Part shown: positions 19,391-27,892 of the stretch, piece after piece
How the letters are laid out: each line of letters starts with the position of its first letter
How positions within the stretch are numbered: position 1 is the first letter of the stretch
DNA from: Escherichia phage P896
Direction: 5' to 3' (one strand)
DNA length: 64,000 bases
Sequence record: OL451225.1
Program-made: the position numbers and the translations under genes
The notes under the pieces: model-generated
Database searches by the model: none
Told to the model about the DNA's origin: nothing
Seen by the model: the letters and a program-made list of their open reading frames with translations, nothing else

Positions 19391-19490
19391 TTTCCAAAAA
19401 GACCCTGAACACATAAAGTGGCCGCAATTCCAAAACAAAAACAGAATGCACCAAATCTAACAATATCCCAACCAAGGCTACAGGTCTCAA

Positions 19491-19781
19491 TCATTTGCAA
19501 CGTTCCTCTTTTAGTTCAGAACGATAATAACATAACATACCTTTTTGGTCACGTACATATCTTTTTACATCATTCATCCAAATCCTGAATTCTTGCGATG
19601 CTTCAAAAGGCATACCAACCCAGGCTTGACCATCAATTACCTTCACTTCCCATTGCTGCTTATAATCAGCCAATGCAACAGGCCAATTAGGATGAACTTG
19701 GATTGTGGGCTCCACAACGGGCTTCTGGGCGCATGAAACGAGTCCAATAGCCAAACATACTGCCATGATAGATTTCATCAT
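19491..19781 (-). CDS. Outer-membrane lipoprotein spanin (o-spanin; pseT.2-like)
   Basis: 96 aa; signal peptide with lipobox LVSC; followed directly by the i-spanin candidate, as in T4 pseT.3/pseT.2. Confidence 0.55.
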   Translation of the reverse strand: MMKSIMAVCLAIGLVSCAQKPVVEPTIQVHPNWPVALADYKQQWEVKVIDGQAWVGMPFEASQEFRIWMNDVKRYVRDQKGMLCYYRSELKEERCK

Positions 19782-20131
19782 TTGGTGAGCTCCTGGAAGT
19801 CCTGGGCGAACTTATCAAAAGACTGATTAATCTGTTTTTCAACTAATTTAGGCTTCGCTGCCACAACCTTAGTACGTTTTGCATCTGCGCGAAGTTTATC
19901 ATTTTCCTTCTGCAGGTGTTCAACATATTCCTGGCGCTGTTGGTCAAGGAGATTAATTTGATTAACCTGGTCTTTTATTGATTGCAGATTTTTCGCATTA
20001 TCTTCTGCGACTTTGGTGACTTCCGCCACCGCTGTCTTGAGATTATCCACTTTTGCTTTTAGATAGAAACCACTACCAGCAGTTACTACCAGGGCGAGCA
20101 TAAGCCCTGTGGTGAGATTACTTATTTGCAT
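19778..20131 (-). CDS. Inner-membrane spanin (i-spanin; pseT.3-like)
   Basis: 117 aa; N-terminal transmembrane helix followed by a long charged coiled-coil region. Confidence 0.55.
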   Translation of the reverse strand: MQISNLTTGLMLALVVTAGSGFYLKAKVDNLKTAVAEVTKVAEDNAKNLQSIKDQVNQINLLDQQRQEYVEHLQKENDKLRADAKRTKVVAAKPKLVEKQINQSFDKFAQDFQELTK

Positions 20132-20625
20132 AACTTGATGATTACCTCAACAATATCATCCTGGGATAAACCATTCAGGAGGATGTGATTTGTACTGTCA
20201 GATGCTGAAATGCGGAACTGATTACCAACTTCATCCGCCATATCATCCTGGGTTAACACTGGGTGTTTAATTCCCAGGCGGTGTTGAAGTGTCAGGGGTT
20301 CAACCACAACATAACAAACACATCCATTGATATGCACATTAGGTTGGGTCTGATTGATGAACACTTCTGCATCATATTTAACCAAATGGTTCTTTAAGAA
20401 GTCAACCATTTCAGGAACAGATTCATGCAGTGCTTCTTTCCGCTCTTCTGATTTCTTATCACGATATTCTTTTTGTTTCGCCTTCAACTTATTATCAGAC
20501 GCCAGTTTCTTTCTTAAGTCAGTAAGGAACCCAACATTTTTGGAACCTTTATAAACATAGATTCCGTCATGGCGGTCACCATATACATCAACAATCATTT
20601 CATTTGAAATCAGTTGCATATTCAT
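20122..20625 (-). CDS. Hypothetical protein at the position of T4 alc (167 aa from the internal ATG)
   Basis: GAGGAAAA Shine-Dalgarno before MNMQLISNEM; 167 aa equals T4 Alc length and the position between rnlA and the spanins matches; identity not verified. Confidence 0.35.
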   Translation of the reverse strand: MNMQLISNEMIVDVYGDRHDGIYVYKGSKNVGFLTDLRKKLASDNKLKAKQKEYRDKKSEERKEALHESVPEMVDFLKNHLVKYDAEVFINQTQPNVHINGCVCYVVVEPLTLQHRLGIKHPVLTQDDMADEVGNQFRISASDSTNHILLNGLSQDDIVEVIIKLCK

Positions 20626-20638
20626 AATATTTTCCTCA

Positions 20639-20872
20639 TTAGTAGCGGTTGTAACCTCTAGGACCAAAAGAGTTGGCACCCAGGCGTTCATCTTTCTTTT
20701 TGGCTCTTGCTCTAAACCCAGAATCACCTGTTTGAGCTTTCAGTTCTTTTAACAATTTGGCCTTCAGGTCAGTAATGAAACCAATCCGGCGGTCTCCCTT
20801 GTAGACATAGATTCCGTCATTACTGTCACCATATGCCTGTGTAACTCTTTCATTTGTAATTAAGTTTAACAT
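20639..20872 (-). CDS. Hypothetical protein, paralog of the N-terminal region of the downstream ORF
   Basis: 77 aa; shares L(I/T).NE.V...YGD..DGIYVYKG....GF.TDL..KL with 20122..20625; own promoter and Shine-Dalgarno. Confidence 0.45.
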   Translation of the reverse strand: MLNLITNERVTQAYGDSNDGIYVYKGDRRIGFITDLKAKLLKELKAQTGDSGFRARAKKKDERLGANSFGPRGYNRY

Positions 20873-20903
20873 GTTTTAGTCCTCATCAGTAGTTGATGGA
20901 ACC

Positions 20904-20935
20904 ATTATGTATAGAAAGAAGGGGCTTGTACACCC
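20904..20935 (-). promoter_or_regulatory. T4 early-type promoter
   Basis: Minus strand GTGTACAAG-N-CATAATGGTTCCATC; overlaps the AAGGGG/CCCCTT hairpin. Confidence 0.45.
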
Positions 20936-20942
20936 CTTTTTA

Positions 20943-22079
20943 TTATTCAGGAAGGATTACTTCCGCTTGGTAGTCCGACGGAATGTAAAGTTTATGATTT
21001 TTAAGGAAAACTTTATTGATTTGAGCAATCGTTTGTTCGGTTTCCTGGGGGCGTTGATAGGTGTTCATTAATACGGAGAACAATCCCGGGTACGGTTTAC
21101 ACAACTCTTGACCTTTAATCGCAAACTCGCGACGGTCTTTTCCTGCCAGTTGTTTCTGGGCGTCAAGCAACAATCCCAGCGTATTGGACAGATAATCCAG
21201 ATGTACAATGGTAAAGGCATTAACTTTTTCGCGAGCATAATCATCACCAGTAAACATGGCAATAACATCATCAGCCCCGCCGGCAACAACAACTTCAAAC
21301 AAACGCTCATTATTATTAATGGAGTCTTTAGTATGGTGCAGAGCACAATACCATTCTGTTTTCAGCTTGAACTTCTGACCACTTGCCAGCTCGTAGACGA
21401 AGCCTTCAATCTCTTTCATACCACGAACATTCTCAATGCTCACCAGGTCATATGCTTCAACCAGGAAAGGACGGAGTGCAGCATCTTTGAACAGTTCCTG
21501 GTATGGGATATATTCGCCAGTTTCATTATGACGAACGTTCAGTAAAATCAGGTCACGTTCCTGGTAAGGCAAAACAATGCGGTTGGTTGGTGCAACATAT
21601 TCCATATTGCATGCATAACCAGCTTCAGTGATTTCAGTCACACGAGCCCTGAACGCTTCACGGTGCGGTTGTTTAAACACCTGCAGAGATTCAGCAGCTT
21701 GGGAACTTTTAATCGACCCTTTGGATTTAAAAGCAATATTAGTCTGGTCCATATAAGTAGAAACCAAGCTACCATCAGCTTTTGCAGTAACCAGGACAAC
21801 TTCATCAAGGTTAAGGTCCATGGTCATTGGGTTCTCACCCAGATTAAAGAATTTTTCCATAGGACGGGCAGCAATGCGAACTGGACCATTGTCATCCATT
21901 TCAAACATAATGCCGCGGCACTCCAGTGCGTCATCAAGAAGCCAATCACTATAGGAAGCATAGTTATAGCTAAAGATGCGGAACTTAGTTTCAAATGGAG
22001 AAACAAAATCCGTATAGAAAAACTTACCTTTATCGGATTCGGCGCAAAGCTTCATTAAGTTATCATATAATTCAATCAT
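20943..22079 (-). CDS. rnlA: RNA ligase 1
   Basis: 378 aa (T4 Rnl1 is 374 aa); ligase motif I KADGSL; conserved N-terminal ...FRIFSYNYASYSDWLL.DALECRGIMFEMD... Confidence 0.85.
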   Translation of the reverse strand: MIELYDNLMKLCAESDKGKFFYTDFVSPFETKFRIFSYNYASYSDWLLDDALECRGIMFEMDDNGPVRIAARPMEKFFNLGENPMTMDLNLDEVVLVTAKADGSLVSTYMDQTNIAFKSKGSIKSSQAAESLQVFKQPHREAFRARVTEITEAGYACNMEYVAPTNRIVLPYQERDLILLNVRHNETGEYIPYQELFKDAALRPFLVEAYDLVSIENVRGMKEIEGFVYELASGQKFKLKTEWYCALHHTKDSINNNERLFEVVVAGGADDVIAMFTGDDYAREKVNAFTIVHLDYLSNTLGLLLDAQKQLAGKDRREFAIKGQELCKPYPGLFSVLMNTYQRPQETEQTIAQINKVFLKNHKLYIPSDYQAEVILPE

Positions 22080-22492
22080 TTCTTCACCTTATGTTGGTAA
22101 TTCCACGGGGGATTAAAAAGCTTGATGAACATCGGCTCTTCCAGAGACATCGTTTCGACTGACATCGTACCAAGTTCATTGGTCATTGACAGATTGAAAC
22201 ATTGTCGTGCATAGAATACCACCTTTTTACCTTCTTGTAAAGCTTCATGTATCATCCGGGATTTGTTTGAATCACTCGTCTGTTCGATTCGGTTAATTGC
22301 AGTCCGGTAATAGTTGATACGCTTCTTAAGGTTGTTCGTCTTACCAATATACACTAGTTCATCATCAACCGAAATAGCATAGATAACATTTTTCTTATTT
22401 GCGAGAGTAAGGATAGGGATTTTACCATCGACTAACTCCAACTCCGCGTATTTTATAAAACTGTATTCATCAGCGATTTGTTTCATGGGCAA
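22076..22492 (-). CDS. denA: Endonuclease II (GIY-YIG family)
   Basis: 138 aa (T4 EndoII is 136 aa); GIY-YIG motif VIYAISVDDELVYIGKT; position between nrdB and rnlA. Confidence 0.8.
   Translation of the reverse strand: MPMKQIADEYSFIKYAELELVDGKIPILTLANKKNVIYAISVDDELVYIGKTNNLKKRINYYRTAINRIEQTSDSNKSRMIHEALQEGKKVVFYARQCFNLSMTNELGTMSVETMSLEEPMFIKLFNPPWNYQHKVKK

Positions 22493-26115: not shown

Positions 26116-27892
<1,777 letters not shown>

Follow-up and report, generated by a model that had tools for sequence, protein, structure and literature searches.

Introduction

The Alc protein of bacteriophage T4 terminates transcription on DNA that contains unmodified cytosine (dC-DNA), an activity blocked by mutations in dispensable region I of the beta subunit of RNA polymerase, and it is not known to bind DNA or RNA (PMC2988021). 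The restriction of this termination to unmodified DNA was established more than 30 years ago. T4 has a single alc gene directly after rnlA, whereas in Shigella phage SP18 a pair of genes has been annotated alca and alcb since 2010 (GQ981382, NC_014595), the second bearing the note 'similar to N-terminal region of bacteriophage JS98 Alc inhibitor of host transcription'. Phage VR7 likewise has alc together with a short gene, VR7ORF243c, that was given the same product name as SP18 alcb. Here we analyze the corresponding pair, which we call alcA and alcB, in Escherichia phage P896 (sequence record OL451225.1), using a stretch of 64,000 nucleotides (nt) that is hereafter termed the window.

The two genes are the same and stand in the same order as in SP18 and VR7, with no substantive difference: the identity to SP18 is 100% between AlcB of the window and alcb, and 99.4% between AlcA and alca. 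As annotated genes, then, the pair is already known from dozens of public genomes, and alcB has a PHROG family of its own (PHROG 17715, a 77-amino-acid (aa) 'inhibitor of host transcription'), whose name was taken from Alc by similarity. Some records label alcB 'hypothetical', and EAWsc9 labels it 'PRC domain-containing protein'; a search of the literature found no paper discussing it. The pattern of substitutions and a repeat at the junction of the two genes indicate that alcB is a real, selected protein-coding gene that arose by partial tandem duplication of alc, and its product is a domain paralogue of Alc, not an Alc protein.

A full-length Alc and a paralogue of its N-terminal module

The two genes occupy these positions in the window:

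20122-20625, minus strand: alcA, the Alc orthologue (inhibitor of host transcription), 167 aa from an ATG start, assigned by Pfam, PHROG and alignment to T4 Alc
20639-20872, minus strand: alcB, 77 aa from an ATG start, the Alc N-terminal module followed by a separate tail

An original prediction, made from the letters of the window, had taken the 167-aa open reading frame (ORF) between rnlA and the spanin genes to be Alc, and it is a true Alc orthologue: residues 1-166 match positions 1-176 of the 177 in the Pfam ALC profile (PF17527; E = 1.4e-50, 171.8 bits), the protein matches PHROG 1253 at 8.6e-75, and alignment to T4 Alc gives 56% identity across 166 of its 167 residues (E = 1e-56). T4 Alc and AlcA also have in common their 167-aa length, their neighbours, the position of their promoter and a 10-nt overlap with pseT.3. 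A mechanical ORF list runs the gene up to a GTG at 20727 (201 aa), but the alignment to T4 Alc and a GAGGA 7 nt upstream place the correct start at the ATG at 20625. In the AlphaFold (AF2) model of AlcA, which has a mean predicted local distance difference test score (pLDDT) of 92.7, a helix (8-15) and a beta-hairpin (23-33) are followed by a long helix (34-80) and an alpha/beta domain (87-166).

The same prediction held that the 77-aa ORF duplicates the first 45 or so residues of Alc, and here too the comparison agrees. AlcB and AlcA are identical at 19 of 34 aligned residues (BLASTP, E = 9e-14), and residues 2-59 of AlcB match positions 3-62 of the ALC profile at 42.5 bits (7.3e-11), so that both proteins lie above the 25-bit gathering cut-off of the family. 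Because the match extends to position 62, the part in common amounts to about 45-60 residues, and AlcB shares only this first portion of Alc. In the alignment the module takes the form of a helix, a beta-hairpin and the pattern YGD..DGI.V.KG....G[FY]..DL. Structure prediction of both proteins is in accord: the AF2 model of AlcB (overall pLDDT 73.5, about 90 over residues 11-40) has a helix at 7-14, a hairpin at 22-32 and a helix at 33-53, matching AlcA elements 1-53, and it reproduces the first 20 residues of the long AlcA helix before passing into low-confidence coil. Ending at residue 77, AlcB is without the rest of the long helix and without the C-terminal alpha/beta domain, and the residues invariant in Alc that it does not have include N91, Q94-P95-N96-V97 (the NxTQPNV motif) and G118-I119. 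Over its whole length (1-77 of 77), AlcB matches PHROG 17715 at 2.9e-53. A fold search with AlcB returned no informative match.

What follows the module is a basic, glycine-rich tail (GFRARAKKK...GANSFGPRGYNRY; pLDDT about 54), which is probably disordered according to the model. Conserved within it are GF near position 52, a run of basic residues, the motif R.G.N[ST]FGP and, at the C-terminus, N-[KR]-[FY]. Derivation of the tail from a frameshifted alc was rejected, in that a profile of four tails, compared with three frames of nine alc genes, gave a best E value of 0.3, and residues 47-70 or thereabouts match no frame of alc beyond a weak in-frame resemblance (YRD--KKSEERKEAL versus FRARAKKKDERLGAN). 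One contig in ENA encodes an AlcB variant (P0002) whose tail is frameshifted after residue 55, and another database protein (P0040) is a 63-aa truncated Alc of the T4 type, possibly an alc mutant or an assembly error.

Two observations concern AlcA in public records and in the genus. Several records (loci L010, L011, L014 and L017; proteins P0003 and P0004) start alcA at an upstream in-frame codon, giving 188-189 aa, and the mis-called extension (within window 20626-20727, minus strand) overlaps the 3' end of alcB. In addition, AlcA occurs as two N-terminal alleles that differ in a mosaic patch of about 120 nt at 64% identity, with nine residues changed (window 20476-20596, minus strand, codons 10-50 approximately; loci L005, L010, L012-L014, L016 and L017), the remaining 350 nt or so of the gene being 100% identical. 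That the patch was copied from alcB was ruled out, since the identity between alcB and alcA is equal for both allele types.

Distribution of alcB

Within 50,697 phage records, a tblastn search with AlcB found full-length matches, 93.5-100% identical, in 33 Gaprivervirus records, each of which also has alcA. The only other record reached at 80% coverage or more was EC128, where the match, at 48%, is to the Alc gene of that phage; everywhere else outside Gaprivervirus, the query matched only the N-terminus of a single Alc gene. T4, Melville (Gelderlandvirus), JS98 (Dhakavirus) and p000v (Mosigvirus) have no alcB, alc being the next gene after rnlA in each of them. The Acinetobacter phage AM101 has a 78-aa ORF in this interval (L030:1680-1916), but it is hydrophobic and shows no Pfam or BLAST similarity to Alc, and Aeromonas phage avDM4 has no short ORF analogous to alcB.

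In large protein collections AlcB forms five clusters at 90% identity, reduced to two representatives at 50% identity, and three of the five clusters are distant metagenomic lineages. Two of the metagenomic lineages (L018/L019 and L023) could be seen in context: their AlcA proteins are 78-79% identical to that of the window, and alcB lies between rnlA and alc. A sister lineage (L020-L022), whose Alc is 64% identical, has no alcB. The gene, which was to be looked for in T4 and its relatives, is thus confined to Gaprivervirus and to metagenomic sister lineages. A search of 1.84 billion representatives for more distant relatives yielded only AlcB, the N-termini of Alc proteins and six long proteins (P0036-38, P0041, P0043 and P0044). 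We rejected the latter as AlcB relatives: in the five that were scanned, the hits were spread over dozens of unrelated Pfam families and hardly any stretch was significant by itself, so that they were treated as compositional noise.

Selection on alcB

Across 12 distinct haplotypes from 14 genomes, the ratio of nonsynonymous to synonymous polymorphism (pN/pS) is 0.11 for the gene overall, 0.24 in the module and 0.04 in the tail. Variable sites are distributed 5/2/17 over the first, second and third codon positions, which indicates that the selected frame is that of alcB and not that of the overlapping alcA ORF extension. The length of AlcB stays at 77-78 aa in four lineages although identity drops to 44-50% (44-71% within the module), and 27 columns, including G-NSFGP of the tail, are invariant in three of those lineages. 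Judged by these patterns, alcB is a real protein-coding gene under selection.

Origin by partial duplication

The junction between the two genes retains a trace of their origin:

20633-20656, minus strand: second copy of the alc 5' untranslated region (5'UTR), the duplication junction, which codes for the last AlcB residues (RGYNRY-stop) and provides the alcA Shine-Dalgarno sequence (SD)

The 24 nt ending at the alcA SD (GGTTACAACCGCTACTAATGAGGA, 20633-20656) and the 24 nt ending at the alcB SD (GGTTCCATCAACTACTGATGAGGA, 20880-20903) are identical at 19 of 24 positions, a score attained by none of 2000 shuffles, and weaker traces of the repeat are present in L018 and L023. The spacing of these segments implies a duplication unit of about 247 nt, comprising some 26 nt of 5'UTR and the first 73 or so codons. 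The partial gene duplication that had been proposed from the likeness of the two proteins thereby gains a nucleotide signature, and we conclude from it that a partial tandem duplication of alc gave rise to alcB. In T4, Melville, JS98 and p000v, alc begins 62-64 nt after rnlA behind an equivalent promoter. The upstream copy would have retained this ancestral early promoter and the ribosome-binding site, and would now read into the second 5'UTR copy and stop at the alcA SD. At the nucleotide level, alcB and alcA are about 60% identical (57-61%) in every genome; gene conversion between them was rejected, the figure being the same everywhere and for both AlcA allele types.

Promoter and operon layout

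The signals for expression of the pair are the following:

20904-20932, minus strand: early-type (sigma-70/T4-early-like) promoter for alcB and alcA, with -35 TGTACA at 20927-20932, a 17-nt spacer and -10 CATAAT at 20904-20909
20880-20884, minus strand: alcB SD, GAGGA, within the first 5'UTR copy (20880-20903)
20633-20637, minus strand: alcA SD, GAGGA, right after the alcB stop (TAA-TGAGGA)
20919-20938, minus strand: terminator-like hairpin found by scan directly 3' of the rnlA stop and overlapping the -35, a 7-bp stem followed by CTTTCT

The original prediction gave the 77-aa ORF an SD, which is the GAGGA listed above, and an early promoter of its own. A promoter match is indeed present upstream, scoring 9 of 12 against the consensus and unchanged in 14 of the 14 gapriviruses compared, but it does not belong to alcB alone. 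It aligns base for base with the rnlA-alc spacer of T4 (GTTTACAAGTCCCTCGTGTTGTGTTATAGT versus GTGTACAAGCCCCTTCTTTCTATACATAAT), where the promoter reads GTTTACA-N17-TATAGT against GTGTACA-N17-CATAAT in the window, and equivalent GTTTAC-N17-TAnnnT elements occur in Melville, JS98, p000v, L018, L020 and L023. Because it corresponds in position and sequence to the spacers of T4 and these other lineages, the candidate element appears to be the ancestral early promoter of alc, serving alcA as well. The first 5'UTR copy, including the alcB SD, is conserved in 13 of the 14 gapriviruses, EAWsc9 having GCGGA.

In the window, 13 nt separate the alcB stop from alcA, and the stop abuts the alcA SD. The gap measures 10-13 nt in every lineage, with the stop codon inside or adjoining the SD, and in VR7, L018 and L023 the TGA within TGAGGA serves as the stop. 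So small a gap leaves no room for an alcA promoter; alcB and alcA most likely form one transcription unit, and the arrangement of stop and SD suggests that they are probably translationally coupled.

The RNA of the rnlA-alcB spacer (20877-20938, minus strand) folds at -22.1 kcal/mol (z = -2.9) into two hairpins, the terminator-like stem over the -35 and a second one that pairs the alcB SD with sequence just past the -10. RNA started at the promoter would be without most of the 5' arm, so that read-through RNA from rnlA might translate alcB poorly and promoter-proximal RNA might translate it well. From a reading of its sequence, the rnlA-alc spacer of T4 can form a similar 6-bp pairing.

Alc without a dCMP hydroxymethylase

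The gene alc normally travels with gene 42, which encodes deoxycytidylate (dCMP) hydroxymethylase, and has been said to have the 'same distribution as gene 42' (Petrov et al. 2010). This association is not seen here. Searches by tblastn with gp42 of T4 and a divergent gp42 from Mosigvirus, run on the window and the remainder of SP18 (loci L024, L026, L027 and L028), matched nothing but the canonical td, and the annotation of SP18 (12-142 kb of the record) lists no dCMP hydroxymethylase gene. The only gene of the thymidylate synthase family is this td (286 aa, window 26116-26976, minus strand), while alc, denA and a gp56-like dCTPase/dUTPase are present despite the missing gene 42. Since co-occurrence is an association and not a structural criterion, AlcA is still filed as an Alc. 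The absence of gene 42 from Gaprivervirus has been published, and an unknown non-canonical base was suggested (PMC12115623, PMC8056088), and a 2025 survey of coliphages gives Gaprivervirus as the one named genus with alc, denA, denB, ndd and dCTPase but no gene 42 (PMC12115623). No other named genus has alcB, so that the two peculiarities coincide, but only in this single instance.

What AlcB may do

The reading that we prefer, and that we consider somewhat better than an even bet, is that AlcB modulates Alc or is its partner, using the module that they have in common, and that it is encoded by a selected gene that came from partial duplication and shares one operon with alcA. The two genes would share a transcript made early in infection, and their translation would be coupled. 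Having kept the short helix, the beta-hairpin and the start of the long helix, and having gained a basic tail with the NSFGP motif, AlcB would contact the same partner as the N-terminal module of Alc, either RNA polymerase or Alc itself, and in this manner it would contribute to the transcriptional shut-off on unmodified DNA or adjust it. We infer the shared partner from the conservation of the module; RNA polymerase is a candidate because the action of Alc depends on dispensable region I of beta. AlcB is a natural and selected stand-alone Alc module, a ready-made domain dissection, and the ligand of AlcB is likely to be the ligand of the module in Alc.

Several points weigh against this proposal. 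A search of the literature found no transcript, protein or phenotype data for alcB, and a search of the PDB returned no structure of Alc. The promoter is only a 9 of 12 match to the consensus and has its -35 within a hairpin, and the frameshift in P0002, unless it is a contig error, would mean that one genome or more may do without an intact tail.

Small proteins that retain one module of a larger one are familiar as microProteins, or dominant-negative truncated paralogues, of which the Id proteins and LITTLE ZIPPER are examples. AlcB is likewise a small protein that descends from a larger one through duplication and truncation, with one module kept, but unlike plain truncated microProteins it adds a conserved tail of its own. 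As a special case of the modulator reading, AlcB could be a dominant-negative decoy, a role that the original prediction had suggested, binding AlcA by way of the module together with the beginning of the long helix, or competing for the docking site on RNA polymerase, and so damping Alc, for example to protect the phage's own transcription. We regard such a decoy as unlikely, even though AlcB has the module without the C-terminal domain and comes from the same operon, probably in a fixed ratio to AlcA, and even though the DNA of gapriviruses, which are without dCMP hydroxymethylase (PMC12115623, PMC8056088), may not be shielded from Alc as T4 DNA is. Nothing indicates that Alc forms dimers or that its module serves as a surface for interaction, and a pure decoy would have no need of a tail motif so strongly conserved. 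Moreover, the N-terminal alleles of AlcA and the alleles of AlcB are shuffled among the gapriviruses compared, with no co-variation that would hint at an interaction. Alternatively, AlcB could have become a small nucleic-acid- or nucleoid-binding protein with a task distinct from termination, its basic, glycine- and aromatic-containing tail binding DNA or RNA, for instance in unfolding of the host nucleoid. In T4 genetics, alc is the same gene as unf, to which host-nucleoid unfolding was assigned. The tail motif is conserved in four lineages, is basic and predicted to be disordered, and is not recognisably derived from any frame of alc; but no family or fold match points to nucleic-acid binding, and the conserved N-terminal module would be left without explanation, which makes this alternative distinctly improbable. 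A further idea, which we treat as a long shot, is that AlcB lets an Alc-carrying phage live without hydroxymethylcytosine by retuning or restraining Alc so that differently marked phage DNA is transcribed: AlcB might occupy the Alc docking site on polymerases that are on phage DNA, or might be an adaptor for another DNA mark. For the puzzle of why a toolkit that destroys and silences dC-DNA is kept without the enzyme that makes hydroxymethylcytosine, AlcB is nonetheless a reasonable candidate to examine.

Two other explanations concern the gene and not its activity. A non-functional remnant, in the sense of a decaying partial copy of alc picked up by gene callers, would fit the shortness of alcB, its narrow clade and the one frameshifted variant. 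However, alcB is intact in all 14 gapriviruses compared and matched at full length in every one of the 33 Gaprivervirus records, its SD is conserved, its variation falls mostly at third codon positions, and both its length and its tail motif are kept where AlcB is only 45-50% identical. Low pN/pS, kept length and kept tail motif together make a decaying remnant very unlikely, and we consider this explanation close to refuted. Alternatively, alcB could be the 5' stump of a resident alc, and alcA a foreign alc recombined downstream, with no tandem duplication at all. Such a replacement would account for the placement of alcB, which lies downstream of the ancestral promoter at the very point where other genera have the start of alc; alcA is mosaic within the genus, as its patch at 64% identity attests; and over Alc residues 1-46, AlcB is as close to Alc of the T4 type (56-60%) as to its own AlcA (51-53%). 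Yet a comparison over 46 residues resolves little, and the repeated 5'UTR before both genes fits a head-to-tail duplication, so that we hold replacement to be very doubtful. Both routes yield the same gene pair today, and the selection on alcB holds either way.

Neighbouring genes

The window is Gaprivervirus sequence: its segment from 19400 to 22200 is 97.8% identical to SP18 and shares 91-97% identity with some 30 further gapriviruses. The order of genes on the minus strand is denA, rnlA, alcB, alcA, pseT.3 and pseT.2, and the neighbours of the pair are:

20943-22079, minus strand: rnlA (RNA ligase 1), a 378-aa ORF annotated as rnlA in SP18 and VR7, upstream neighbour of alcB
19778-20131, minus strand: pseT.3, i-spanin, downstream neighbour, overlapping alcA by 10 nt
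19491-19781, minus strand: pseT.2, o-spanin, from the ORF list

Beyond the 3' end of the o-spanin gene, the segment 18839-19438 (minus strand) varies among relatives: the match of SP18 to the window breaks there, and the small ORFs between pseT.2 and pseT differ in SP18, VR7 and the window. The segment looks like a local hotspot of indels or replacement.

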